A stretch of 64,000 bases of DNA, from NCBI GenBank assembly GCA_021824575.1, contig JAKAKJ010000082.1:50211-114210 (forward strand). The letters are read 5' to 3'. Under the pieces are notes generated by a model. It saw only the letters and a list, made by a program, of their open reading frames with translations, was not told the DNA's origin and did not search any database. Below, piece by piece: positions 3,525-17,445 of the stretch. The stretch comes from Chloroflexota bacterium. Its GTDB lineage: Bacteria > Chloroflexota > Anaerolineae > Anaerolineales > Villigracilaceae. The position numbers and the translations under genes were made by a program. The stretch's first letter is position 1. The number at the start of each line of letters is the position of its first letter.

Positions 3525-3938
3525 ATGGCTTCCGTTAAACAATCAGAATATGAAGCGCTGGCTGCATTCCGCTATTCGCTGCGGCAATTTCTGCGATTCA
3601 GCGAGGAAGCCGCGCAATCAATTGGTCTGACCCCCCATCAGCATCAGGCTTTATTGGCGATCAAAGGTTTTCCGGGCCGCCAAAGAATCACAATTGGCGA
3701 ACTTGCGGAACGTTTGCAAATCAAACATCACAGTGCGGTGGAACTGGTCAATCGCCTGGTTGCGGATGGCCTCGTCATCCGCGAAGATTCGGAGAAAGAT
3801 CATCGGCAGGTTTTTGTCCTCCTGACCGAACGCGGCACGAATCTTTTGGAACAGCTTGCGGCAACGCACAAACAGGAATTGCGGCGCATCGGCCCGCAAT
3901 TGAATCAACTACTCGAACTTTTGTCGAACGATAAGTGA
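3525..3938 (+). CDS. MarR-family transcriptional regulator
   Basis: 137 aa. Winged-helix pattern (LTPHQHQALLAIK...ITIGELAERLQIKHHSAVELVNRLVADGLV...D.R...V.LT..G). Confidence 0.8.
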   Translation: MASVKQSEYEALAAFRYSLRQFLRFSEEAAQSIGLTPHQHQALLAIKGFPGRQRITIGELAERLQIKHHSAVELVNRLVADGLVIREDSEKDHRQVFVLLTERGTNLLEQLAATHKQELRRIGPQLNQLLELLSNDK

Positions 3939-3953
3939 ATCCTAATTTTTGAG

Positions 3954-3982
3954 TTGACACTGCCACATGCGCTCGTTATAAT
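3954..3982 (+). promoter_or_regulatory. Consensus sigma70-type promoter driving the FMN riboswitch leader
   Basis: TTGACA (3954-3959), a 17-nt spacer, then TATAAT (3977-3982). The riboswitch P1 stem begins ~16 nt downstream. Confidence 0.7.
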
Positions 3983-3995
3983 CTTCTCAACAAAA

Positions 3996-4116
3996 TATCA
4001 ACCTTCGGGGCAGGGTGTAATTCCCGATCGGTGGTAAAGCCCACGAGCCGCAAGATGGCATGAGCCGGTGGAATTCCGGAGCCGACAGTTAAAGTCTGGA
4101 TAGAAGAAGGATTGAC
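3996..4116 (+). promoter_or_regulatory. FMN riboswitch (RFN element) aptamer
   Basis: Conserved RFN core read directly: CTTCGGGGCAGGGTGTAATTCCCGATCGGTGGTAAAGCCCACGAGCC ... GGTGGAATTCCGGAGCCGACAGTTAAAGTCTGGATAGAAGAAGG. P1 pairs 3998-4006 with 4106-4115. Confidence 0.9.
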
Positions 4117-4149
4117 TTGGCCGATGATTCGGACGAGTCCGCTTTGACG

Positions 4150-4180
4150 CCCCCGAAACAATTCGTTTTCGGGTTTTTTG
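4150..4180 (+). terminator. Intrinsic terminator (expression platform of the FMN riboswitch)
   Basis: CCCGAAA (4152-4158) pairs with TTTCGGG (4167-4173), followed by TTTTTT (4174-4179), directly after the aptamer. Confidence 0.7.
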
Positions 4181-4184
4181 TTAA

Positions 4185-4218
4185 GTCCTACGAAGTAGGA
4201 AGGTCCTACGAAGTAGGA
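4185..4218. repeat. Two tandem copies of the hairpin-forming 16-mer GTCCTACGAAGTAGGA (period 18 nt)
   Basis: Copies at 4185-4200 and 4203-4218. Each is itself a palindrome (TCCTAC-GAA-GTAGGA). They lie between the riboswitch terminator and the permease start codon. Confidence 0.8.
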
Positions 4219-4305: not shown

Positions 4306-5088
4306 ATGGCTGATGCTCTTCGTAACATTCACCGCAACCGCCGCTGGCTCGGATTGATTTCTTTGCTGATGGGATTGTTCCTCTGGTGGCTGGTTTCGCA
4401 GACGGCGAATCTTCCGTCGTTCATTCTTCCATCGCCGATGGAAGTTTGGTCGCGCTTTTTGGTTGCGCTTGCCGATGGAAGTTTGTTTCTCAACACAGGC
4501 GTCACTTTGTTTGAAATCCTGTGCGGTTTGTTCGCGGGCGCGGGATTGGCAACCGTCATTGGTTATCTTGTTGCGAAATCACGCGCGCTCGAACGCGTGC
4601 TTGCACCGTATCTGGTCGCAAGCCAGGCTGTGCCTCTGGTTGCAATTGCTCCATTACTGGTCATTTGGTTTGGACCGGGAATGTTTTCCAAGATTCTGAT
4701 TTGCGCCTTGATCGTGTTCTTCCCTGTGCTGGTCAATACCGTTGTCGGCGTACGCGCGGTTCCGCCCGCGTTGAACGATTTGATGCATTCCCTGCGCGCC
4801 ACGCGCGGACAAATCCTTCTCAAGCTCGAAATTCCCGCCGCGCTGCCGATTTTTCTCAGTGGGTTGCGAATCGGGGCGACGTTATCGGTGATCGGCGCGG
4901 TGGTGGGGGAACTCGTCGGCTCGGATCGCGGCCTGGGTTTTCTCATCAACATCGGGCGCGGTCAATACGACACGGCGTTGGTATTTGTTGCAATTTTCAT
5001 GTTGATTATCCTTGCGCTGGTTCTTTATGGAATCGTGGCATGGATCGAAAGCCGCGTGTTGAGCTGGCAAGAGTGGAGAAGTCAATAA
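4306..5088 (+). CDS. ribX: ABC transporter permease, NitT/TauT (ThiX-like) family; candidate riboflavin importer permease
   Basis: 260 aa with ~6 TM segments and an EAA-like loop (LNDLMHSLRATRGQILLKLEIPAALP). First gene downstream of the FMN riboswitch. The RibXY assignment rests on the published Chloroflexi FMN-riboswitch regulon, recalled from memory. Confidence 0.7.
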   Translation: MADALRNIHRNRRWLGLISLLMGLFLWWLVSQTANLPSFILPSPMEVWSRFLVALADGSLFLNTGVTLFEILCGLFAGAGLATVIGYLVAKSRALERVLAPYLVASQAVPLVAIAPLLVIWFGPGMFSKILICALIVFFPVLVNTVVGVRAVPPALNDLMHSLRATRGQILLKLEIPAALPIFLSGLRIGATLSVIGAVVGELVGSDRGLGFLINIGRGQYDTALVFVAIFMLIILALVLYGIVAWIESRVLSWQEWRSQ

Positions 5089-5106
5089 ATTCAAAGAGGT
5101 GAAGTT

Positions 5107-6087
5107 ATGTTTCGCAAGTTAGGTTTGCTCATGCTTGTTTTGATGATCGGTCTTTCGGCCTGCAGCAACTCGCAGTCTCAGAATGCCGCGGGATCATTGG
5201 TCCAAATCAAATTGCCGGTTGGATATATTCCCAATATCCAATTCGCACCGTTGTATGTCGCCATTGATAAAGGGTATTTCAAAAACGAAGGCATCCAGAT
5301 TCAATTTGATTATTCGCTCGAAACCGATGCGACGGCTTTGGTCGGCGCGAACAATTTGCAATTCGCCGTCGTTTCAGGCGAGCAGGTTTTGCTGGCGCGC
5401 GCGCAGGGACTGCCTATCGTCTATGTGGGCGCATGGTATCAACAATATCCGGTGTCGGTGGTGTCGAAAGTGGATCAGGGAATTGTCAAGCCTGCCGACT
5501 TGAAAGGCAAGAAGATCGGTCTGCCCGGCTTGTATGGCGCGAGCTATATCGGACTCGATGCACTGTTGTTCGCGGGTGGTTTGACCGAGAAAGACGTGAC
5601 GCTCGATTCGATTGGATTCAATCAAGTCGCGGCGCTGGCCGCGGATAAAGATCAAGCCGTTTCAGTTTACACAACCAACGAACCGATCCAGCTTGCGGCG
5701 CAGGGAATCAAGTTGAACGAAATCCGCGTGGCTGATTATGAGCAATTGGCGTCCAATGGTTTGATCACAAATGAGACAACGATTGCGAAGAATCCCGATC
5801 TGGTGCGCCGCATGGTTTCCGCTTTCTTGAAGGGTCTCGCCGATACGATTGCGAATCCAGGTGAAGCATATACCATAAGCGAAAAGTATGTCCCGAATCT
5901 TTCCGCGGCTGACAAGACTACGCAGATGGAAATCCTTACGCGCTCGATTGATCTGTGGAAGGCGAGCCGACTCGGTTATTCCAATCCGCAGGCATGGCAG
6001 AACATGCAGGATACTTTGCTCAAGATGGGATTATTGAAGCAGTCGTTGGATTTGACCAAAGCATTCACAAATCAATTCGTTCCGTAA
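5107..6087 (+). CDS. ribY: ABC transporter substrate-binding lipoprotein, NMT1/THI5 (ThiY-like) family; candidate riboflavin-binding component
   Basis: 326 aa. Lipoprotein signal (LVLMIGLSAC-S). NMT1-like pattern (GYIPNIQFAPLYVAIDKGYFKNEGI). Same operon as the permease. Confidence 0.7.
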   Translation: MFRKLGLLMLVLMIGLSACSNSQSQNAAGSLVQIKLPVGYIPNIQFAPLYVAIDKGYFKNEGIQIQFDYSLETDATALVGANNLQFAVVSGEQVLLARAQGLPIVYVGAWYQQYPVSVVSKVDQGIVKPADLKGKKIGLPGLYGASYIGLDALLFAGGLTEKDVTLDSIGFNQVAALAADKDQAVSVYTTNEPIQLAAQGIKLNEIRVADYEQLASNGLITNETTIAKNPDLVRRMVSAFLKGLADTIANPGEAYTISEKYVPNLSAADKTTQMEILTRSIDLWKASRLGYSNPQAWQNMQDTLLKMGLLKQSLDLTKAFTNQFVP

Positions 6088-6098
6088 ATATTTTTAAT

Positions 6099-6152
6099 AC
6101 GAAGGGCACAAAGCACATAAAAGAAAATCTTTTCCCTTCGCATCCTTTGCAT
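6099..6152. repeat. Imperfect inverted repeat built from CGAAGG/CAAAGC and CTTCGC/CTTTGC half-sites (REP-like family 2, copy A)
   Basis: ACGAAGGGCACAAAGCAC ... CCCTTCGCATCCTTTGCAT in the gap between the SBP and ATPase genes. Related copies lie at 42484-42541 and 51819-51890. Confidence 0.5.
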
Positions 6153-6172
6153 AAAAAACAAAAACTGTAATC

Positions 6173-6919
6173 ATGACAACTGCGCCTATCCTGACTGTTC
6201 AAGATTTATCTGCCGTGTTTCCCGATAACAATGGCGGTTTGCGCGCATTGCAGAATGTTTCATTTGAAATCTGCCCGCAGGAATTTATTTGTGTGCTTGG
6301 ACCGTCGGGCAGCGGCAAGACCACATTGCTGCGAATCCTTGCCGGGCTTCTAAAACCAACATCCGGCAAAGTGGATTTTGGCAATGGACGCCAGCCGCGC
6401 ATCGGCATGGTCTTTCAGCAAGCCAATCTCATGCCGTGGCGCACGGCGATTCAAAACATCATGCTGCCGCTTGAGTTGGACGGCATGGATCATGACGCGG
6501 CAAAAGAGCGCGCGCGAAAACTGATTGATCTTGTTGGGCTTCAGGGATTCGAGTCATCGCTGCCGCGGGACTTATCTGGCGGGATGGCGCAGCGTGTGGC
6601 GATTGCGCGGGCGCTCATCCATGACCCGGACCTGCTCCTGCTCGATGAGCCTTTCGGGTCGCTGGACGCTTTGACCCGCGAACGCATGTGGACGGAGCTT
6701 TCCCGCATCTGGCAGGCGCGCCAAAAAACGGTCATCATGGTCACGCATTCGATTGAAGAATCTTTATTTCTGGCTGACCGCGTGCTGGTGTTGACTCAGC
6801 GTCCGGGCAGGATCAAACTCGATTTAACGGTGGACATTCCACGTCCGCGCGAAGATGAGATGCGGTACACATCCCATTTTGGAGAATTGGCAAAGAAGTT
6901 GAAGGAAGCGATTGGATGA
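6173..6919 (+). CDS. ABC transporter ATP-binding protein (NitT/TauT family)
   Basis: Walker A GPSGSGKTT, signature LSGGMAQRV, Walker B LLLLDEP, H-loop VTHS. Confidence 0.9.
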   Translation: MTTAPILTVQDLSAVFPDNNGGLRALQNVSFEICPQEFICVLGPSGSGKTTLLRILAGLLKPTSGKVDFGNGRQPRIGMVFQQANLMPWRTAIQNIMLPLELDGMDHDAAKERARKLIDLVGLQGFESSLPRDLSGGMAQRVAIARALIHDPDLLLLDEPFGSLDALTRERMWTELSRIWQARQKTVIMVTHSIEESLFLADRVLVLTQRPGRIKLDLTVDIPRPREDEMRYTSHFGELAKKLKEAIG

Positions 6920-7324: not shown

Positions 7325-7360
7325 ACAAAAAAAGAGCGACGCATTTTGCGCCGCTCTTTC
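7325..7360 (-). terminator. Intrinsic terminator downstream of the giant surface-protein gene
   Basis: The minus strand reads GGAAAGAGCGGCGCAAAATGCGTCGCTCTTTTTTTG: a stem with one mismatch followed by T7. Confidence 0.6.
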
Positions 7361-7369
7361 CGATTTGGA

Positions 7370-10300
7370 TTAGCGCCCGCTGTTACCGGAAGATGTATCG
7401 GCTTCAACTTTGACAAGAACCGCGCCAACTTCCACGCGATGAGCGTAGGTGTTTGTGCTGGCATTGTAATCCTTGCAGGTGATGAGCGTCAGCCACGGCT
7501 GGTTTTCGTGCTTGAACGCCGACATGTCAGTTGGAGAAATAACTTTGTTTTCGCGCACTTCGTAGATGTAACGCTGGCCCTGGAAGTGGATGATGATCTG
7601 GTCACCCCATTTGAGGGTGTGCAGATTGACGAATGGACCGGGTAATCCATTGGCGCCGTATACATGACCGGTCAGCACGCTATTGCCGGACCAGGTTGGG
7701 AAGGCGGTTCCGTCCAGATAACCGACCTGATTCGCCAGCCAGGTCACATCCCAGCTATCGCCGGATTGAGGCACACCAACGATGGAAGTCTTGACGCCCA
7801 ACGCCGGTATTTCGATGGTAAGGTCGGAACTTGTATCGTAGATGTTCGCTGGTTCGGGCGCAATGGATGTGACAACGCCGGGCGCAAAGCCGGTGTGCGG
7901 CAGGAGGCTCCAATAAGCGCCTCCGCCATTCCCATGAGGGGCGGATGGAATTGTCAATTCCACCGATGCCAAATCGTTGAAGGTCGGTTCGTTGAGTGAA
8001 CTGGTTGTGATGGACGCGTTGTTGACGCCTCCCGGCGGCCGGCCAAGGCTGTTGACTTTCGTCAAAACGGTCACAGTATAAAAATCGGTTGGAGTAACTG
8101 TCCCAAAATTGATCGTGAATGTGTTGCCAGAAATGACGACCGGGAAATTTTTATTCGGCGAAACATTGATGCTGACAATGTCAAGAAATGCAGGCTTGGT
8201 ATCGGTCAGGACAACATCCAATGCGTCCGCATTGCCGTTGTTTCCAACCGTGATTGTGTAAATCACGGTATCGCCAACATGAGCCGTACCTGGATCGCCG
8301 TATTTGGTCACAGCCGGATCAACGATCGTGGCGCTGGTCTCCCGGTCACCGTAATCCACCACGGCATCGGTTCCACAACCCATCACGACACTCACATGAT
8401 CGAGCGTGGTGCTGACATAGCCGCTCAGATTGGTCTCCATAACGGTGTATATGCCCGGTGACAAATTACTGAAGCTATAACTGCCAGTACTGGTTGTGGT
8501 AGTAGTGGCAATGATATTGTTATTTTGGTCGTAAAGTGTGATCGTTACATTGGGTATGACAAGCTCACCACTATCCAGAGCGCCATTGTCATTGGCATCG
8601 TTGAACACCACGCCGTGGATACTGTTGCTGCCACATCCGCCGATCAGATGATCCGCATCGGCAGCACTGTTATTGTTCGGATTGGCATCCGAAACATTCG
8701 AGGGTGCGGTCACGGTAACGGTATTGACCACATCACTGGTTGCGGCGGAGGAAACAGTTGCAGTGAGTGTGTAAGTGACCTTTTTCCCGGCTGGTATATT
8801 GACACCAGCATCGTTGAGATTGCCTGACCCGCTGGCGGTACACGCTGCGCCCGTATCCGGTGAGCAAGTCCAGGTTGCATGGATGAGTGAGGCTGGCAGG
8901 CTGTCAATCACAGTCGCGCCTGTCGCATCGCTTGGTCCGGCATTGCTGGCAACGATGGTGTAGATCACGGTTTGGCCAAGCCCCACCGCTGAATTTCCGT
9001 CGGTTTTCGTAATGCTCAAATCAGAAACATAAACCGGCGTGTCAGTATCCGTTGCGGAATTATTATCCGGTGTTGGGTCTGTAAAGCCGTTCAAACTTGC
9101 GCTGGCAGTGTTGGACAAATTGCCGGTCGCGCTGGAAGCCACTATGGCGTTGAGCGTGTACGTCACATGCCCGCCCACCGGAATGCTGACAGTATCGTTG
9201 ATATTATTTGTCCCGCTTGAGCCGCAAGTGGCGGTGCCGCTGCCAATGCAAGACCAGGTTACGTTGGTCAACTCGGCTGGCGGGTTATCGGTCACGGTTC
9301 CCGGCGCTGTGATGTTGCCATCGTTGTAGACCGTGATCGTGTATGTGATGGCAGTGCCCGGCGTGTATGTTGTTGATCCGTCATCTTTCGCCACGCGCAG
9401 ATCAGGGCTATTGACTGTGATTGGCGCTGACGCTGACGCGGCATAATCATTCAACGCGCCGCCTGCGCCGTCCGCGCCGGTTCTTTCCCCGGATACCGAG
9501 CCGGGTTGCGATGTCCAAGTTTCCAACACACTGTTGGTTGATGTGCTGCCAATCGCGCCGCTGACGGTGACATCGTATGTGACCGTCACATCACATCCAA
9601 GCGGAATGGTTCCGATGGTCAGGTCAAGTTGGGTTGACGTTGATGCCGAGGCATCAACACCCGTAGCGCATCCGTTTGGATTGCTGCTGGTTACATTTAC
9701 ATTCGTCAGGCCGGTCAATCCCAATGGCATGGCATCGGTAATGTGAGTATCGTACGCAGGAGCATTGCTTGCGCCGCTGTGCGACACCGTCAAGGTATAG
9801 GTGAGCGTCGAGTTGTACGACGGTGTTGCTGAATTGACAGCTTTGCTGATAGTCAGATCTGGTTCGATGACCGTGACCGCAGGCGCGGACGAATTCAATG
9901 TCAGCGTGCCAGCCGCGTTTGGATTTGTATATGTAAAGCTGGTGGGATTCGTAAATGATGTCCCGGATTGATTTCCTATAACATTCGCAACTTGTGCCTG
10001 GAAAGTTACCGTGATGATTCGGTCTGTTGCCAATGATGCGGGCGATGTGGTGATCGAGCCAAATGTCAACGTTATGATTTGACCGTTCAAATTGAAGAAC
10101 GAAGCGTTGGCGTCTGTGTATGGTGCGGCGGTGCCAATGCTCATCCCCGATGGAACATTCACCGACAAACTGCCCGGAACATAATTCAAGCCGTTTGGCA
10201 AAACGTCAACCAGGTCTGCTGTTGGATTGCCCGTTACGCCTTTGGGAGCAAAGATTTGGATGCGATAAGGAATCGTCGCACCAATGGCGTATGTTGTCCC

Positions 10301-13300
10301 TGTCGGATCGATATCCTTTAAAAGTGACGGTGTGCCAAGTGTTGTAGTGACGGTATTGCTTGATGCAACGTAATCGTTCGTCCCAGTCGGACCATCTGAG
10401 CCATTACGTTCGCCGTTCGTTGCGCCTGAAGCGCCGGGAGTGGTCGAGCCGGTGTTATTCCCGCCGCTGCCGTTCGGTGTGCCCGTGCCCGGAAGACTTG
10501 TGTACGTCAGGCCTGCCGCGTTCGAGAAGGTTTTGCCTGTCGGCGCAGTGCTGCTTACCACAGCAGAAATATCAATGGTTGCCGTCCCGCCCGCTGCAAG
10601 ACAAGTCAACGTGGCGACTGCTGTCGGCGCGGCATAAGAACCGCTCACTGTCGGAGTTGTGGAACCGCATGAGCCTCCGGTTGCCGAACCGCTGACAGTG
10701 ACCGGCCCTGTCAATGTGGAATCCAAAACATCGGTCAGATTGATATCGAAGGCCGGGGCAGATCCATTGTTTGTGAATTGGAATTGATATGTGATCGGGT
10801 CGCCCGCATTGGTGGGAATGACAGCTACAGATTTTGTGATACTCGCTATGGATGGCTCTACAACGGTCACTCGATTGCTGTTGCTTTGCGATGATGTCAC
10901 GAGACTGGCACCACTGACATATACGCTGAATGAATTGTTACGCGTGCCGCCACTTGAGTTTGTGCTGACGTTATCTACCAGCGCGTTGAATTCGATGACG
11001 ACGTATTCGGCGTCCGCATCGTTGTCATTGTTCGTGATCGTGCCGAGACTAAAGAGCGGATCGTTGCCATCCGGGAAAGGATTTGTGCCGATGCCTGGCC
11101 CATTGTTCGTGATGTCGGTGGATGGCAAAACAAAGGTCGGTGTGACGTTTGCAGAGTTGCCGGAAATTACAGGACTGGAACCAATGCCCGGGTCGGAGGA
11201 AGATGCGCAGTTTGCTCCGCTGTTGCAAACAAAAGCCACTTTGGTTGTGCCGTCATTGAGATAGCGCATCCCGGTGACGAGGTTATCCAACACCGCGACG
11301 CTGTTGGTTGTGCCTTCAGGAAGATTCATCACGAGATGATAGTGGACGATTTCACCAATCAGTACCGGACGCGGCGAGGCGACCTCGGAAGTCGAGTCTT
11401 CCGAGGTGCCAACGATGGTTTTGGTTGCGCTGATGACGCCCAGCTTGGCCGAGGCAGTGTTACCGGTGCCGCCCTCAGTCGAGGTGACCGCGCCGCTGGT
11501 ATTAACAATCGTTCCACTTGTTGAAGTGGTCACGTTTATCGTGACTGTGCATGAGCCGTTGGATGCAATAGAACCGCCCGCCAAAGTGATCGAATTGGCG
11601 GTACTGCTGACGGTGCCTCCGCATTGCGGCGTTGCCGGTGTTGCGGAGCGGGTCATTCCAGTTGGGAAGGTATCGGTGAAACCAATGCCGTTCAACGTTG
11701 TGCCGCTGTTCGGATTGGTCAGTGTAAATGTCAGCGTCGTGGTGCCGCCCGGAGCAATCGGATTCGGCGAGAAGGATTTGCTGATGATCGGCGGTGCGAT
11801 CACTGTCACACTGGCCGAAGCCGTGTTGCCTGTTCCGCCGTTTGCCGATGCAACATTGCCTGTCGTGTTGTTCTTGAGTCCGGCAGTTGCGCCGGTCACG
11901 GTTACATTGATCATGCAATTAGCGCCCGGGTTGAGCGAGCCTGCGCTCAATGTGATAATGCCTGTTGCAGCAGTTGTTGTCAGCGTCCCGCCGTTACATT
12001 GCGTCGAAGTAGAATCGGCGACGGTCAAACCGGCCGGTAAGGTATCGCTGAACGCAATACCGGATAACGAAACTGTATTTGCAGCCGGGTTCGTAATCGT
12101 GAAAGATAATGTGGTCGTGCTGCCCTGTGCTATCGAAGTCGGTGAGAACGATTTGCTGATCGTAGGCGGCGCAACTGCTAGCAGACTGGCAGAGGAAAAA
12201 TTGCCGCTGCCGCCTTCTGTGGATGTTACATTGCCTGTAACGTTGTTCAGCGTTCCGGCGGTCGTGGCTGTGACATCAACTGTCACGGTGCAGGTTCCGC
12301 CTGCGGCAATCGAACCGCCGCTGAACGAAAGGCTCGCATCAGCCGCGGACGGTGAGAATATCGGCGTGCTGGATGCGTTACAACCACTGACAATCGCATT
12401 CGGTGCGCCTGCCACTTGCATTCCTGATGGAAGTGCATCGGTGAATCCAACGCCGGTCAAAACTGCCCCCGCGTTTGGATTCGTGATTGCAAATGTGATC
12501 GTGCTTGTACCGCCGACCAAAATGGAATTCGGCGAGAAGGATTTGCTGATGGTCGGCGGCGCGATGACCGTCAGGCTGGCCGATGCGGTGTTGCCATTTC
12601 CGCCGTTTGATGAGGTTACCGTTCCAGTGGTGTTGTTCTTAACGCCGCTGGTTGTGCCGGTCACATCAACCGTTACAATGCAATAGTTGTTGATGTTGCT
12701 TGAATCGTTTATAACCGTCCCGTTTGTCAGTGTAATGGAATTGGCTGTAGAGCTTACTGTGCCGCCGCATTGCGCTGAATCCGGCGTGTTTGCCACGACA
12801 ACGCCAGCCGGAAATGTGTCGGTAAACCCAACGCCAGTCAATGGGACCGCGTTGGTGGAGGGATTCGTGATCGTGAACGTCAGCGTTGAGATCGCTCCGA
12901 CTTGAATCGTGCTGGGCGAAAATGCTTTGCTGATTACCGGCCCGATGATTTGATAGACCGTGACACTGCTTGTGTTCGATGTGACGGTGTTGCTGCCGGA
13001 GTCCTGTGCCGCTGCCGTTGCGATGTTCGTTACGTATCCGGTTGTCGCATCTCCGGTCGTTACAGCATACGTTTTGGATGAGCAAATCAAGTTCGCGCCG
13101 GGCGTGAGGCTCGAAGGAGGAGTTGTAACGCAGTTAAATGGCGTTCCAAGAGGTGAACCGATATGATCGTCAGTAACAGTGAACGGCGGATATAAAGTTA
13201 CATTGCCTGTATTGGTGATGGTGTAGTTGTAGGTAATTGTATTTCCCGCGCTTCGATAACCAGCAGTGGTTGTGCTTTTCTTAAGTGTCAAAGCTTCAAG

Positions 13301-16300
13301 GTTAACGGTCACACTGCTTTGATTTGAATCTACAGGCGTTGCCCCGGATAGCGCGTGAGCTGTCGCTGTATTGGTTACGGACTTCGCCGTTACATCGGTG
13401 GCCTGAACTGTGTAAGTCGCTGTGCAAGTCACGCTCTGCCCTGCATTTAAACTGGTTGTTCCCAGCGGACAACTTACCGTGGCCTTGTCATCGGTCACCG
13501 TAAATTCTCCGCTTGCGCCATTTCCATTTAGCGTTGTGTTACCTGTGTTTGTCAGCAGGTAACTGTAATTGATCGAGTCGCCAGACTTTTGATAGCCAAC
13601 AGTGCTCGTGGATTTTGCTAACGATAATCCAGGGCCGTTTACCGTCAACGTATCACTGGCAGTGTTGCCGGTCCCGCCGTTTGTCGAATTTGCTGCTCCG
13701 GACGTATTAGCGTACGTGCCGCCATTTGCCGTTACGTTGACTGTAACAGTACAGGAATCGTTCGCGCTAATGGAGCCGCCCGTCAAAGTGATTGAAGTAG
13801 ATGTGGAAGTTACCGTGCCGCCGCATTGAGGCGAAGTCGGCGCGGTCGCAACTGTCAAGCCAGTTGGGAAAGAATCAGTGAATCCAACCCCGGTCAATGC
13901 GACAGGGTTGACAACCGGATTGGTGATCGTGAACGTTAAGATTGGAGCGGGATCGCCCACATTTATTGATTTGGGTGAGAACGATTTGCTGATGGATGGC
14001 GGCGCAATTACATTCAGTGTCGCAGACGCAGTGTTGCCAGTGCCGCCGTTGGTCGAGGTCACAGCATCACTTGTGTTTGGATAACTTCCTGCGGGCGCAG
14101 TCACGCTGACGGTCACTGTGCAGGAACTATTTGGGTTGATTGTGCCGCCGGTCAGTGTGACCGAATTGCTGGCGCTGGTGACCGTGCCGCCGCATTGAGA
14201 TGTATTGGGAACGCTTGCCAGTGTCATGCCGGTTGGGAAAGTATCGGTAAAACCAACGCCGGTTAAAGCAACCGTATTCGCGGCCGGGTTTGTGATGGTA
14301 AACGTCAGCGCGGAGGTTCCTCCGGCCGGTATGGGATTCGGCGAAAACGCTTTCGCAATGCTTGGCGGCTGGGGAACGGGATTCACTGTGAGCGTATCGC
14401 AAGCTGCTTCTTGATTGGTTGCGTTTTGGTTATCTTTCAGCGTACCTTTGGGAATGCAGTTCTGATAGCTGCCCGGTGCGGGTGCGGTCACGCTGACAAC
14501 GATGTCACAGGTTGTGCTGTCCGCCAATGACCCGCCAGTCAATGTGATCGAATCGCTGGTGCTGGTTACCGTGCCTCCGCATTGCGATGAAGCGGGCGGG
14601 CTTGCAACCGTCAGACCGGAGGGTAAAGTATCAATCAGGCCGACGCCATCTATCGGAAAATTGCTGAGATTCTGAATCGTGATGGTTAACGTGGACGAGT
14701 TTCCGCTCCCCGCGAGAATCGGATTCGGACCGAAGACTTTGCTGAGGCTCGCGCCCGGCAGGTTGGTCAACGTCGCGGAAGCGTCCTGTGTATTTGTTGC
14801 GCCGTTTGCGGTTGTTACCGCGCCGGCACCAATCGTATTGATGAGATTGTTATCCACATTCATCGTTGTGCTGACGGTGAGGGTGCAGCTGGCATTGGCC
14901 GCCAGGCTTCCGCCGCTAAAAGAGAATGATGTGTTGCCGGGCGCTGCAGAAATGGTTCCGCCGCATGTTCCCACCGACGGATTCGGCGGATTGGCAATCA
15001 TCACACCACGACCAGCATCTGCGCCCGTGCCTTGCGGCAGGTTATCAGTGAACATGATGCCGGTCAGGGGTACATTATTTGGATTGATGAGTTGGATGCT
15101 CAACATGGAGGCTGAGCCACCATAAACGGTCAGTGGATCAAAAGCCTTGACCACCTGAATCGTAAGGGGAGCAATTTTGAGTGTGGCAGCTGCCGGAGAA
15201 GGCGGATGGATTACAGTTGTTGTGTTGTGGATCGTCCCTGAAACACTAGTTGTCGAAATGCCATTGTCATAAGTTCCGGCTGTTGTGCCGGTTACATCCA
15301 CATTGATTGTGCATGTGCCGGGCACGCTTCCAACCTGTGCTGGGATGATTCCATTGATCAACTGAATTGTCGAAGTTCCCCGATCAGCTGTCAGGTTTAG
15401 AGTCGGGTCCCCGTTACAGGTTGTTGACGCGTTGGGTGAGTCCGCGATGGTCACGCCGCTGGGCAGGTCATCTGTCAGCGAGACACTATCGAGTTGACTG
15501 GTATTTGTATTGTCGAGCGTGATCGTCAACGTGGAAATTCCGGTTGGGTTGATCTTCGGTGGATAAAAAGCTTTACTGATCGTAAGTCCGCTGACGGTCA
15601 AGTCGGTCGCTATGTTTCCCGAAAGGCTGCGGTTCTGATCATCCAAAATATTGGCGGGGGAAATCGTGTTGGTGTAAGCGCCCGGTGTATTGCTTGTCAC
15701 ATTGACTTTCAACGTACATGTCTTTCCTGCCGGGATCGTCCCTCCGGAATAAGTGAGAAGTGTATCCCCTGCGGCAGGAGAGAATGTTCCTCCAACACAG
15801 TTGGCATTTTGTGATGCGGACGGCAGATTGGCTACCTGCACCCCTGCGGGAAGCGCATCGGAAACGGCGAAATTCGTAAGCTGTGTGTCAGCAGGCGCAG
15901 TGAGATTCAACGTTAGCGTAGATATGCCGCCGACTGCAATTGTAGGCGGACTGAAGCTTTTGCTTCCCGTAACGCCCAGGCCCGTGGCATATACCGTGAT
16001 ATTTGCCGTCGCGGCAAGCACATTGGTAGCGCCCTGGGTCGTCGTCAATGCACCAGATGGAATCTTGTTGGTATAACTGGCAGGCGTTGACGATGTGACC
16101 GTCGCTGTGATTGTGCAAGTGCCCGGGGTTAGCACAGAGCCGGCAGGGATTGTTCCCCCGCTCAAGCTGACCGATGAAGATGTGCTGGTGACCGTGCCGC
16201 TGCCGCAGGTTGTGCTTGGCGCTGGCGATGCTGCCACTGTCAAACCTGCTGGCAATGTATCGGTAACCGTCGCACCTGTGTACGCGGAGCTGGTTGGATT

Positions 16301-17284
16301 TTTCAGAGTGATTGTCAGTGTGGCAGAACCGCCCTGCTGAAAATTGGAGGGTGAGAACGCTTTCGCAATTCCGATGGATTGAACGTTCAGCGAAGCGGAT
16401 GCCGCGCTGGCATTCGTCACACCCTGCTGGGTTTGAATGGCACCAGCCGGAATATTGTTTGTGTAGACTCCGGGAACTGTGGATGTCACTACAACGACCA
16501 GGCTGCACGAAGACGATTTTGCAATGCTGCCACCGCTCAAGCTGATGGAAGTGGAGGTGTAACTAACTGTCCCGCCATTGCATTGAGAAGGGGCTGGAGC
16601 AGATGCGACTGTCACATTGGCTGGTAAATTGTCCGTGATGGATACGTTCGTGAGGGAATAATTTGAGTCATTATTTCGCAGTGTGATCGTCAATGTGCTG
16701 ATCTGTCCCACCCACATGGTATTTGGAGCGAAACCTTTGTTCAAGGATGGCGGCTGCACTGCGTTGACGTTCAAGGTGGCACTGGCATCCGATGCGCTGG
16801 TGATATTGATCGTCCCACTTGGATCCGTCGCTTTCAGCGTTCCTGCCGGGATCGTGTTGATGTGGTTTCCGGTAACCGTCGAGGTGACGTCAACCGTGAC
16901 CGCGCAGGAGCCTTGCACGGTCCCAACCTGAGCCGGAACTGTCCCGCCGCTGACAGAAAGGACATTGCCGCTCGTTGTCACGGTGCCGCCGCAGGTGGTG
17001 GTCACATTGAGCGGGTTGGCAAAACCTACACCCGCTGGCAAAGTGTCTGTCCATGCGGCTGGAGAGGACGAGAGAATAAGAGGAAATGTATTCGGGTTAT
17101 AGATGGATACGCTGAGAGTGGACGTTCCCCCAGCCGGAATGGCAATGGGATTGAATTTCTTGTTCATATCCACTTGAAAATACGGCCCCTGCGCGTGGAC
17201 AGTATTGATTTGCCCAACCGAAATACCAATGACCAACGTAATAACAGCGATCAAACCCGCGCGATAAGAGATGTGACTTCTCAC
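7370..17284 (-). CDS. Giant secreted surface protein (~3,304 aa): signal peptide, >20 tandem DUF11-like modules, SdrD/Cna-B-like domain, LPHTG motif and C-terminal sortase (C60) domain
   Basis: Single uninterrupted ORF. The best start is GTG 17284, 6 nt after GGAGGG; the ORF-track start is TTG 17311. Signal peptide RSHISYRAGLIAVITLVIGISVGQINTVHA-Q. Repeated K(A/S)FSP..GG.STLTFTITNP..TGVGFTD.P.G..C.G....C.V.V modules. IHGVVFNDANDNG...GSYSFSNLSPGIYTV at ~8390-8625. LPHTG at 7889-7903. Sortase His (LTGH, 7664-7666), Cys (LTLITC, 7475-7477) and Arg (AHRVEV, 7436-7438). Confidence 0.9.
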   Translation of the reverse strand: MRSHISYRAGLIAVITLVIGISVGQINTVHAQGPYFQVDMNKKFNPIAIPAGGTSTLSVSIYNPNTFPLILSSSPAAWTDTLPAGVGFANPLNVTTTCGGTVTTSGNVLSVSGGTVPAQVGTVQGSCAVTVDVTSTVTGNHINTIPAGTLKATDPSGTINITSASDASATLNVNAVQPPSLNKGFAPNTMWVGQISTLTITLRNNDSNYSLTNVSITDNLPANVTVASAPAPSQCNGGTVSYTSTSISLSGGSIAKSSSCSLVVVVTSTVPGVYTNNIPAGAIQTQQGVTNASAASASLNVQSIGIAKAFSPSNFQQGGSATLTITLKNPTSSAYTGATVTDTLPAGLTVAASPAPSTTCGSGTVTSTSSSVSLSGGTIPAGSVLTPGTCTITATVTSSTPASYTNKIPSGALTTTQGATNVLAATANITVYATGLGVTGSKSFSPPTIAVGGISTLTLNLTAPADTQLTNFAVSDALPAGVQVANLPSASQNANCVGGTFSPAAGDTLLTYSGGTIPAGKTCTLKVNVTSNTPGAYTNTISPANILDDQNRSLSGNIATDLTVSGLTISKAFYPPKINPTGISTLTITLDNTNTSQLDSVSLTDDLPSGVTIADSPNASTTCNGDPTLNLTADRGTSTIQLINGIIPAQVGSVPGTCTINVDVTGTTAGTYDNGISTTSVSGTIHNTTTVIHPPSPAAATLKIAPLTIQVVKAFDPLTVYGGSASMLSIQLINPNNVPLTGIMFTDNLPQGTGADAGRGVMIANPPNPSVGTCGGTISAAPGNTSFSFSGGSLAANASCTLTVSTTMNVDNNLINTIGAGAVTTANGATNTQDASATLTNLPGASLSKVFGPNPILAGSGNSSTLTITIQNLSNFPIDGVGLIDTLPSGLTVASPPASSQCGGTVTSTSDSITLTGGSLADSTTCDIVVSVTAPAPGSYQNCIPKGTLKDNQNATNQEAACDTLTVNPVPQPPSIAKAFSPNPIPAGGTSALTFTITNPAANTVALTGVGFTDTFPTGMTLASVPNTSQCGGTVTSASNSVTLTGGTINPNSSCTVTVSVTAPAGSYPNTSDAVTSTNGGTGNTASATLNVIAPPSISKSFSPKSINVGDPAPILTFTITNPVVNPVALTGVGFTDSFPTGLTVATAPTSPQCGGTVTSTSTSITLTGGSISANDSCTVTVNVTANGGTYANTSGAANSTNGGTGNTASDTLTVNGPGLSLAKSTSTVGYQKSGDSINYSYLLTNTGNTTLNGNGASGEFTVTDDKATVSCPLGTTSLNAGQSVTCTATYTVQATDVTAKSVTNTATAHALSGATPVDSNQSSVTVNLEALTLKKSTTTAGYRSAGNTITYNYTITNTGNVTLYPPFTVTDDHIGSPLGTPFNCVTTPPSSLTPGANLICSSKTYAVTTGDATTGYVTNIATAAAQDSGSNTVTSNTSSVTVYQIIGPVISKAFSPSTIQVGAISTLTFTITNPSTNAVPLTGVGFTDTFPAGVVVANTPDSAQCGGTVSSTANSITLTNGTVINDSSNINNYCIVTVDVTGTTSGVKNNTTGTVTSSNGGNGNTASASLTVIAPPTISKSFSPNSILVGGTSTITFAITNPNAGAVLTGVGFTDALPSGMQVAGAPNAIVSGCNASSTPIFSPSAADASLSFSGGSIAAGGTCTVTVDVTATTAGTLNNVTGNVTSTEGGSGNFSSASLLAVAPPTISKSFSPTSIAQGSTTTLSFTITNPAANTVSLSGIAFSDTLPAGLTVADSTSTQCNGGTLTTTAATGIITLSAGSLNPGANCMINVTVTGATAGLKNNTTGNVASANGGTGNTASASVTVIAPPIISKSFSPNPIAPGGTTTLTFTLTNPNSGTTLNGIGFTDTFPTGMTRSATPATPQCGGTVSSTANSITLAGGSIASNGSCTVTINVTTSTSGTIVNTSGAVTSTEGGTGNTASAKLGVISATKTIVGTSEDSTSEVASPRPVLIGEIVHYHLVMNLPEGTTNSVAVLDNLVTGMRYLNDGTTKVAFVCNSGANCASSSDPGIGSSPVISGNSANVTPTFVLPSTDITNNGPGIGTNPFPDGNDPLFSLGTITNNDNDADAEYVVIEFNALVDNVSTNSSGGTRNNSFSVYVSGASLVTSSQSNSNRVTVVEPSIASITKSVAVIPTNAGDPITYQFQFTNNGSAPAFDINLTDVLDSTLTGPVTVSGSATGGSCGSTTPTVSGSYAAPTAVATLTCLAAGGTATIDISAVVSSTAPTGKTFSNAAGLTYTSLPGTGTPNGSGGNNTGSTTPGASGATNGERNGSDGPTGTNDYVASSNTVTTTLGTPSLLKDIDPTGTTYAIGATIPYRIQIFAPKGVTGNPTADLVDVLPNGLNYVPGSLSVNVPSGMSIGTAAPYTDANASFFNLNGQIITLTFGSITTSPASLATDRIITVTFQAQVANVIGNQSGTSFTNPTSFTYTNPNAAGTLTLNSSAPAVTVIEPDLTISKAVNSATPSYNSTLTYTLTVSHSGASNAPAYDTHITDAMPLGLTGLTNVNVTSSNPNGCATGVDASASTSTQLDLTIGTIPLGCDVTVTYDVTVSGAIGSTSTNSVLETWTSQPGSVSGERTGADGAGGALNDYAASASAPITVNSPDLRVAKDDGSTTYTPGTAITYTITVYNDGNITAPGTVTDNPPAELTNVTWSCIGSGTATCGSSGTNNINDTVSIPVGGHVTYTLNAIVASSATGNLSNTASASLNGFTDPTPDNNSATDTDTPVYVSDLSITKTDGNSAVGLGQTVIYTIVASNAGPSDATGATVIDSLPASLIHATWTCSPDTGAACTASGSGNLNDAGVNIPAGKKVTYTLTATVSSAATSDVVNTVTVTAPSNVSDANPNNNSAADADHLIGGCGSNSIHGVVFNDANDNGALDSGELVIPNVTITLYDQNNNIIATTTTTSTGSYSFSNLSPGIYTVMETNLSGYVSTTLDHVSVVMGCGTDAVVDYGDRETSATIVDPAVTKYGDPGTAHVGDTVIYTITVGNNGNADALDVVLTDTKPAFLDIVSINVSPNKNFPVVISGNTFTINFGTVTPTDFYTVTVLTKVNSLGRPPGGVNNASITTSSLNEPTFNDLASVELTIPSAPHGNGGGAYWSLLPHTGFAPGVVTSIAPEPANIYDTSSDLTIEIPALGVKTSIVGVPQSGDSWDVTWLANQVGYLDGTAFPTWSGNSVLTGHVYGANGLPGPFVNLHTLKWGDQIIIHFQGQRYIYEVRENKVISPTDMSAFKHENQPWLTLITCKDYNASTNTYAHRVEVGAVLVKVEADTSSGNSGR
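11410..17170 (-). repeat. Tandem coding repeats (~366-390 nt, 122-130 aa modules) inside the giant gene
   Basis: The recurrent DNA signature GG(C/T)GAGAA(G/C)GATTTGCTGAT occurs at 11766, 12141, 12531 and 13974, with diverged versions at 12915 and 14340. Spacings are 375, 390, 384 and 366 nt. Compared segments looked roughly 85% identical by eye. Confidence 0.8.
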
Positions 17285-17445
17285 TGGTGACCCTCCATAT
17301 CGATTCGACAAACAAGCCCGGAATCAAAAGATGATTTCAAACCACCACTCTCGCCAACAAACCAAAATGAAACAGGGCGATTATATTTCCATTGAGTTTT
17401 CTGAACAAGAAAATTACATATCAATTTTGTCGGTTGCCTTTTGCA

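Follow-up and report, generated by a model that had tools for sequence, protein, structure and literature searches.

Results

A giant secreted protein ending in LPHTG and a sortase domain

The window analysed here is a 64,000 nt stretch of DNA from a Chloroflexota bacterium of the order Anaerolineales (assembly GCA_021824575.1, contig JAKAKJ010000082.1, positions 50,211 to 114,210). Its minus strand carries a gene for a giant secreted protein that ends in an LPXTG-type motif, LPHTG, and a sortase domain. According to the textbook scheme, a sortase is a separate membrane-anchored protein, and its substrate is retained by a transmembrane helix and a basic tail. The initial annotation of this DNA had placed motif and enzyme in the same polypeptide, and this was borne out: both lie in a single open reading frame (ORF) of 3313 codons, with a match to PF04203 at E = 3.4e-21. 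The coordinates of LPHTG and of the presumed catalytic His, Cys and Arg were recomputed and all agree. The parts of the gene are as follows.

7370..17311, minus strand: giant-protein gene, an uninterrupted ORF of 3313 codons counted from the first possible start, TTG 17311
17192..17284, minus strand: Sec-type signal peptide, (M)RSHISYRAGLIAVITLVIGISVGQINTVHA followed by QG, read from the sequence; Kyte-Doolittle 19-residue maximum 2.04
7943..17191, minus strand: passenger, a predicted fibrillar stalk of about 30 isopeptide-type domains, from Pfam and NCBIfam matches
7904..7942, minus strand: Gly-rich spacer APHGNGGGAYWSL preceding the motif, in variable or gapped alignment columns; predicted local distance difference test (pLDDT) values below 50 (model residues 1–17)
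7889..7903, minus strand: LPHTG motif, aa 3137–3141, conserved; the predicted scissile bond is between Thr3140 and Gly3141
7823..7888, minus strand: conserved, non-hydrophobic linker FAPGVVTSIAPEPANIYDTSSD from the motif to strand beta1, recognised by conservation, pLDDT and alignment to a class C sortase lid
7415..7816, minus strand: sortase catalytic domain, aa 3166–3299; PF04203, 75.7 bits (cutoff 26.6), E = 3.4e-21
7664..7666, minus strand: catalytic His3216 in SVLTGH, invariant in 97 and in 260 aligned sequences; aligns with the His of class C sortases
7475..7477, minus strand: catalytic Cys3279 in LTLITC, invariant in 97 and in 260 sequences; aligns with the TLxTC Cys of solved sortases
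7436..7438, minus strand: catalytic Arg3292 in AHRVEV, 13 residues past the Cys; invariant in 97 sequences, 99.6% conserved in 260

The C-terminal part of the translation reads ...GGGAYWSLLPHTGFAPGVVTSIAPEPANIYDTSSDLTIEIPALGV...GNSVLTGH...LTLITC...AHRVEV...GNSGR, directly followed by the stop. A GGAGGG Shine-Dalgarno sequence is located 6 nt before GTG 17284, which is the likely start instead of TTG 17311 and would give a protein of 3304 aa. A tandem-repeat scan found no DNA-level tandem repeats in the gene, so that collapse of repeats in the assembly is unlikely.

The passenger consists of 14 DUF7933, 14 CLIPPER/DUF11 and three DUF7507 stretches, SdrD_B/SpaA and four RrgB_K2N_iso_D2 stretches (Pfam, NCBIfam), and thus includes pilin-type isopeptide domains (TIGR04226, four copies, and SpaA). 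CLIPPER/DUF11 and DUF7933 are intramolecular-isopeptide domains typical of fibrillar adhesins, as surveyed in 2025 (PMC12617251), and they occur here in tandem arrays, as in such adhesins. By its domain content the giant protein is a putative fibrillar adhesin-type stalk with predicted isopeptide domains. No YPKN-like pilin motif was found in it. A second motif, LPGTG (10481–10495, minus strand; aa 2273–2277, TYTSLPGTGTPNGSGG...), lies inside the passenger in the TIGR04226 isopeptide-domain region, and a close relative (locus L003) carries the same internal LPGTG at the corresponding place. As it does not fall on the edge of a module, it is probably a loop within a domain.

The sortase domain

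The initial annotation had read a complete sortase fold from the sequence. Profile searches agree, with a significant match and a triad in register with that of solved sortases; besides PF04203, the TIGR01076 model (sortase_fam) gave 46.5–51.8 bits, above its cutoff of 39.35. An AlphaFold2 model built from a 97-sequence alignment predicts a sortase barrel (mean pLDDT 89.5, predicted template modelling score 0.85). In a Foldseek comparison of this model with the PDB, the top 50 listed matches were all sortases of classes C, E, D and A (probability 1.00), the best being SrtC-1 of A. oris (2xwg, E = 1e-10), and the model is consistent with the eight-stranded sortase beta-barrel. Profile match, triad and predicted fold together place the domain in the sortase superfamily, with transpeptidation on LPXTG as its predicted activity. 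It is not a separate membrane-anchored protein, since it forms the C-terminal end of the 3313-aa secreted protein. Among 260 aligned cassettes (motif, linker and domain), the His and Cys are 100% and the Arg 99.6% conserved, which suggests that the enzyme is under catalytic selection.

Class C sortases are the best matches in both sequence and fold (6ixz, 8t28, 2xwg). Formal assignment to class C was rejected, as the class model NF033745 scored 51.1–56.4 bits against a cutoff of 160; the models for classes D, E, F and GN (NF033746, NF058671, NF033747, NF033748, TIGR03784) were rejected likewise, at 23–51 bits against cutoffs of 140–166. Class C enzymes carry a lid with the signature DP[FWY] that fills the active site in cis. 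No DP[FWY] lid was found before strand beta1 of the domain, and the equivalent segment is occupied by LPxTGFAP.

Conservation of the motif and linker

Given the residue composition of the protein, chance would yield LPxTG 0.22 times per protein and 0.002 times per 30-aa window, so its position taken alone is only mildly remarkable. The question of chance is settled by conservation, because the motif is kept across homologues. It stands at the same spot throughout the family, a point on which the initial annotation had made its reading depend, whether judged from the 97-sequence alignment, the best 149 representatives or 260 aligned tails. In the alignment of 97 sequences the P and G are present in every one, the T in 96, and the first position is L, I or M in 87 (L in 76, I in 9, M in 2); P and G are 98% conserved among the 260 tails. 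The x position accepts many residues (A, S, D, V, L, N, E and others), and the sequence ahead of the motif shows no conservation. With P and G invariant, T almost so, x free and a variable, Gly-rich stretch in front, the motif resembles a substrate in its conservation signature, and the stretch resembles a wall-spanning spacer.

The 23 residues between LPHTG and the sortase domain are non-hydrophobic and follow the consensus FAP[GN]VxTxLxxQPxxxY. The absence of a transmembrane segment after LPHTG, which had been reported on first reading, is confirmed by hydropathy: the Kyte-Doolittle 19-residue mean reaches at most 1.01 in the last 190 aa, compared with 2.04 for the signal peptide, and no hydrophobic membrane-spanning segment was found by this measure after the motif or flanking the sortase domain. 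Across the family, the 19-residue maximum taken over the 45 aa behind the motif has a median of 1.0. There is no basic tail at the C-terminus, where ...VEADTSSGNSGR follows the 170-aa enzyme domain, and the giant protein has no match to Pfam Gram_pos_anchor.

A portable C-terminal cassette

With the last 210 aa as query, 427 homologues were obtained. Among the 120 listed, 95 fit the strict pattern [..]PxTG[FIY..]xP, placed 139–189 residues (mostly 167–180) from the C-terminus; the remainder are fragments truncated at the N-terminus, or minor variants. In 1.84 billion representatives (clusters at 50% identity), an exhaustive phmmer search gave 7110 sortase-like matches, 1352 of them at E<=1e-30. 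In most of the best 150 of these 1352 clusters, homology begins at query residue ~18–21 (LLPHTG), and in all but a few it extends to the C-terminus of the target; the proteins range from 200 to 5482 aa. The pattern [LIMV]PxTGF is present in about 146 of 149 representatives, 151–182 aa (median 170) from the C-terminus, and none of these 149 has a transmembrane-like tail. All 48 full-length representatives with a Met start that were checked have Sec signal peptides comparable to that of the giant protein. When the most divergent member (46% identity) served as the seed of a further search, the matches were once more motif-bearing cassettes only.

The passengers are unrelated to one another. They include CLIPPER stalks, Ice_binding domains, PD40/Kelch and Vgb_lyase-like propellers, cadherin-like domains and several sequences without any Pfam match, in proteins of 287–5482 aa, and the smallest members consist of a signal peptide, about 100 aa, LPxTG and the sortase. 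Each protein has one cassette. Since homology starts at the motif and the passengers are unrelated, the conserved unit, as delimited by these alignments, is a portable C-terminal cassette and not an adhesin-specific feature. Export and the cassette are what the members have in common, as one would expect of a sorting signal. The initial annotation had suggested a self-sorting or self-polymerising adhesin. The part of this that stands is that motif and enzyme are covalently linked and secreted together; the link to adhesins does not, because the cassette is found on unrelated passengers, and this favours a general sorting or anchoring role over self-polymerisation of an adhesin.

Judged from the matches, the cassette system is widespread in Anaerolineae; nine related loci whose origin was traced all come from metagenome-assembled genomes (MAGs) of Anaerolineales/Chloroflexota. 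In the source databases the family members are labelled just "sortase" or "LPXTG-site transpeptidase family protein".

Individual members illustrate the range of forms. In P0248, P0217, P0231 and P0283 the cassette is carried on an ice-binding-like domain, on beta-propellers of the PD40/Kelch and Vgb_lyase types, and on a cadherin-like domain. A divergent protein, P0282, has TLVCC in place of TLxTC, with an extra Cys before the catalytic one, and keeps LPGTGFAPG. Locus L002 carries two LPxTG-sortase cassettes within 7 kb (3675–4205 and 10001–10516), each behind SdrD_B-type passenger fragments, which hints at several cassette proteins per genome.

Continuity of the reading frame

A fusion of this kind could be an artefact, in which adjacent substrate and sortase genes were merged by assembly or sequencing error. 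Eleven related loci were fetched, each 12–20 kb. In seven of them (L003, L004, L006, L007, L008, L010 and L011) the ORF is continuous through passenger, motif and sortase, and this agrees with the single-gene structure originally proposed. The clearest split loci, L001 and L005, are from long-read MAGs and have the sortase as a separate short ORF, which is what two genes would look like. In L001, which is syntenic with the window, an in-frame TAA (9995–9997) five codons before LPQTG parts the adhesin from the cassette. That assembly also splits other genes, including housekeeping ones (holB is in two pieces, the adhesin in three), and because of these the TAA is read as an assembly error; the splits in L001 and L005 are probably assembly noise. 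A separate sortase gene would, moreover, require its own signal or anchor, and none lies between motif and domain, while about 146 of the 149 representatives have both in one chain. The two-gene reading was rejected given the continuous ORF in seven other assemblies and the occurrence of the split forms in error-prone long-read MAGs with further broken genes; we regard a merging artefact as very improbable.

Position of the motif relative to the active site

The spacer (model residues 1–17) is predicted with pLDDT below 50, and confidence rises sharply at the motif: block means are 95 for residues 21–30 (PHTGFAPGVV), 91 for residues 31–40 and 88 for residues 41–50. The stretch of motif and linker is predicted without regular secondary structure, and high pLDDT in such a stretch argues that the segment is packed on the domain. 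The model thus has the motif segment confidently docked on the sortase domain.

In a profile search against PDB sequences, the alignment reaches into the N-terminal extension of class C sortases. The lid segment GLDPFSETQK of the E. faecalis Ebp SrtC aligns with the motif region, atGfapgvvte. Distances to the 'IP' of strand beta1 also correspond: the lid Asp precedes it by 28 residues, the Thr of LPHTG by 29 and the Gly by 28. Lids of class C sortases cover the active site in cis (reviewed in PMC8225981). By alignment, then, the motif would have the place, and the distance from beta1, that allow the lid of a class C sortase to reach the catalytic pocket of its own chain.

Covariation within the family gives weak support to a motif–domain contact. 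The choice of L or I at the first motif position is associated with column 143 in the beta6/beta7 loop (Fisher 5.6e-5). It is likewise associated with the x of TLxTC, which precedes the Cys by two positions (Fisher 4.8e-4). The columns with the highest mutual information include those adjacent to the Arg and the Cys, and the I-bearing sequences do not form a clade. We take it that the beta6/beta7-loop and pre-Cys regions are those that bind the Leu of LPXTG in the SrtA–LPAT complex. Mean-field direct coupling analysis on 256 tails recovered plausible beta-hairpin contacts; its strongest linker–domain coupling, P21–G96, was discarded as it rests on a handful of variants. The other couplings had too little support for use, and the L/I association alone was kept, as weak evidence.

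Gene neighbourhood

An intrinsic terminator lies directly behind the giant gene:

7327..7361, minus strand: terminator hairpin and U-run, directly after the TAA stop; RNA fold -22.1 kcal/mol, z = -5.4 against shuffles

The hairpin was revealed by RNA folding and was not reported by a consensus terminator scan. Its place right behind the TAA indicates that the giant gene ends its transcript. The neighbours are housekeeping genes, with GGDEF, holB, rsgA and PBP genes upstream and an ABC transporter downstream, and inspection of them met no pilin genes with a sorting signal and pilin motif. Neither a second sortase nor a canonical tripartite LPXTG substrate was found within the window or in the 11 related loci (150 kb), and a search for pilin motifs in the same DNA gave none.

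The ABC transporter (4306–6919, plus strand) comprises three genes, for a permease, an NMT1/THI5-like binding protein and an ATPase. Directly upstream is a flavin mononucleotide (FMN) riboswitch (RF00050, 3997–4115, plus strand, 103.5 bits), and the transporter is probably a riboflavin-related uptake operon controlled by FMN. An ORF of 426 aa (11406–12686, plus strand) lies on the opposite strand wholly inside the giant gene and is most likely spurious.

Discussion

We consider it somewhat probable that the last ~177 residues of the giant protein act as a self-processing sorting cassette, an "auto-sortase" in which the enzyme stands in for the hydrophobic helix and the basic tail of a canonical sorting signal. 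After Sec export and removal of the signal peptide, the C-terminal sortase domain would fold with its own LPxTG in the substrate groove, the conserved FAP...T.L..QP..Y linker holding the motif where class C sortases keep their lid. Cys3279 would then attack the Thr3140–Gly3141 bond to give a thioacyl intermediate, passenger-LPHT~S-Cys. An envelope amine, most probably a free amine of a peptidoglycan stem or cross-bridge, would resolve this intermediate, leaving the passenger fixed to the wall by its C-terminal end and the stalk directed outward, and the spent fragment of 173 residues (GFAPG...sortase) would be released. The architecture, its conservation and portability, the intact triad and the lack of a membrane anchor are observed directly, and the fold and the docking of the motif are features of the model; from these we infer cleavage between Thr and Gly, action in cis rather than on a sibling in trans, a single turnover and the nature of the acceptor.

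Several points weigh against this scheme. For every family member, cleavage is a prediction. High pLDDT indicates docking on the domain, which is not the same as docking in the groove, and alignment with the lid position would suit an uncleaved pseudo-substrate equally well. The covariation is weak (Meff ~213), survives multiple-testing correction only partly, and does not separate contacts within a chain from those between chains, as would arise if a sibling were processed in trans. A non-anchored enzyme has no obvious route to lipid II, so that the acceptor is a guess. The absence of stand-alone sortases and canonical substrates covers the window and the fetched loci rather than whole genomes, and the TAA before the motif in L001 may be a genuine nonsense mutation or a two-gene form at that locus.

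The same lid alignment, with its equal spacing from beta1, is the starting point for a different explanation. Here LPxTG is an uncleaved, autoinhibitory lid, a pseudo-substrate such as the initial annotation had named as its alternative, and the domain acts on other proteins in trans while its passenger keeps it at the surface. That class C enzymes are the best sequence and fold matches, and that the segment is confidently packed on the domain in the model, speak for it as well. Known lids, however, have DP[FWY], whereas the segment here bears a perfect substrate motif, with P, T and G invariant or nearly so and x free. To equip so many unrelated secreted proteins with a copy apiece would be wasteful for an enzyme working in trans. 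After loss of the signal peptide the passenger would have no evident anchor, and separate substrates were not seen near any locus examined. We think the lid reading unlikely. The kinship with class C, whose members polymerise pilins, can also be read as a sign of self-polymerisation, with the LPxT of one copy joined to a Lys of another in covalent pilus- or sheath-like fibres. The pilin-type isopeptide domains of the passenger (TIGR04226, SpaA) and the filamentous habit of Anaerolineae would suit such fibres. A common acceptor Lys is hard to expect, though, among unrelated passengers that include small globular ones (ice-binding domains, propellers, unknowns of 100 aa), and the giant protein lacks a YPKN-like pilin motif, which leaves polymerisation with a small share of the probability, similar to that of the lid.

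Anchoring must also be weighed against simple hydrolysis, in which water is the nucleophile and the domain would do no more than cut itself away. It would then serve as a pro-domain to be removed, or as a device for transient retention, and the passenger would be set free. Sortases do hydrolyse their acyl-enzyme when a nucleophile is lacking, and here no membrane anchor would bring the enzyme to lipid II. A transpeptidase fold with a fully conserved triad would, on the other hand, be an elaborate route to proteolysis, and the layout of signal peptide, stalk, spacer and LPxTG mirrors that of wall-anchored proteins of Gram-positive bacteria, which supports anchoring over release. Hydrolytic self-release therefore seems improbable to us, and anchoring by a self-processing cassette remains the reading that we prefer.

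Compared with class C sortases, the cassette shares the His/Cys/Arg triad and an N-terminal extension that lies, ~28 residues before beta1, at or over the active site in cis. It differs in that the class HMM (hidden Markov model) score is far below the cutoff (51–56 bits against 160), in having LPxTG instead of a DP[FWY] lid, in lacking a membrane anchor, and in that the enzyme forms the C-terminus of its presumed substrate and is not a separate protein encoded beside pilin genes; class C lids are bound in cis but are not substrates. With the canonical LPXTG signal read by class A or E housekeeping sortases, it shares the Sec signal, the passenger or stalk, a flexible Gly/Pro-rich spacer and a near-C-terminal LPxTG. 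Of the tripartite signal only the pentapeptide is present, however, and a predicted active sortase domain replaces helix and tail, so that the arrangement has neither membrane retention nor a membrane enzyme of its own.

In the full-text searchable literature, which leaves subscription-only papers outside, no description of a natural LPXTG–sortase fusion was met, only engineered tags and the survey of stalk domains. The engineered self-cleaving sortase tags (BISOP) likewise place sortase and LPXTG in one polypeptide and free the two halves by self-cleavage between T and G; they are man-made, have the reverse order sortase–LPETG–target, and serve for release by an added Gly nucleophile, not for anchoring (PMC2901362). 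The natural cassette, unlike these tags, has a conserved, structured linker. Hedgehog/Hint domains offer an analogy only: there too a C-terminal domain breaks the bond just where it begins, by way of a (thio)ester, passes the passenger to a nucleophile and is consumed once, but fold and chemistry are unrelated (N–S acyl shift, cholesterol acceptor) and the systems are not homologous. Like the PEP-CTERM/exosortase system and the C-terminal domain of the type IX secretion system (T9SS), the cassette is a conserved C-terminal module found on many unrelated secreted passengers in one lineage. Those tags are read by a separate enzyme or machine, whereas the cassette contains the enzyme.

In its widest form, the proposal is of a sorting system of Anaerolineae in which the signal is the enzyme: a portable, membrane-independent, single-turnover cassette that holds the scissile bond in its active site, forms a thioester between passenger and enzyme, and ligates any secreted passenger to an amine of the envelope or possibly of a foreign surface. 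It would amount to a natural Michaelis complex of sortase and substrate, formed in advance, that is plausibly related by evolution to the class C lid, and we see the case for this picture as evenly balanced. A natural enzyme–substrate pair linked in cis would be useful structurally, since a Cys-to-Ala mutant should yield the long-sought native sortase Michaelis complex, and the cassette may explain how the class C lid arose. For protein ligation or surface display, it could also provide a compact C-terminal tag, encoded with the protein, that ligates itself without an enzyme having to be added; the display of enzymes or ice-binding proteins by means of the cassette is interesting in itself.

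For the organisms, the cassette breaks both textbook rules of sortase biology and, if the proposal is true, shows how surfaces are decorated in a large and poorly studied phylum. With at least 1352 representative clusters carrying the cassette on very different passengers, the whole surface proteome may depend on it.

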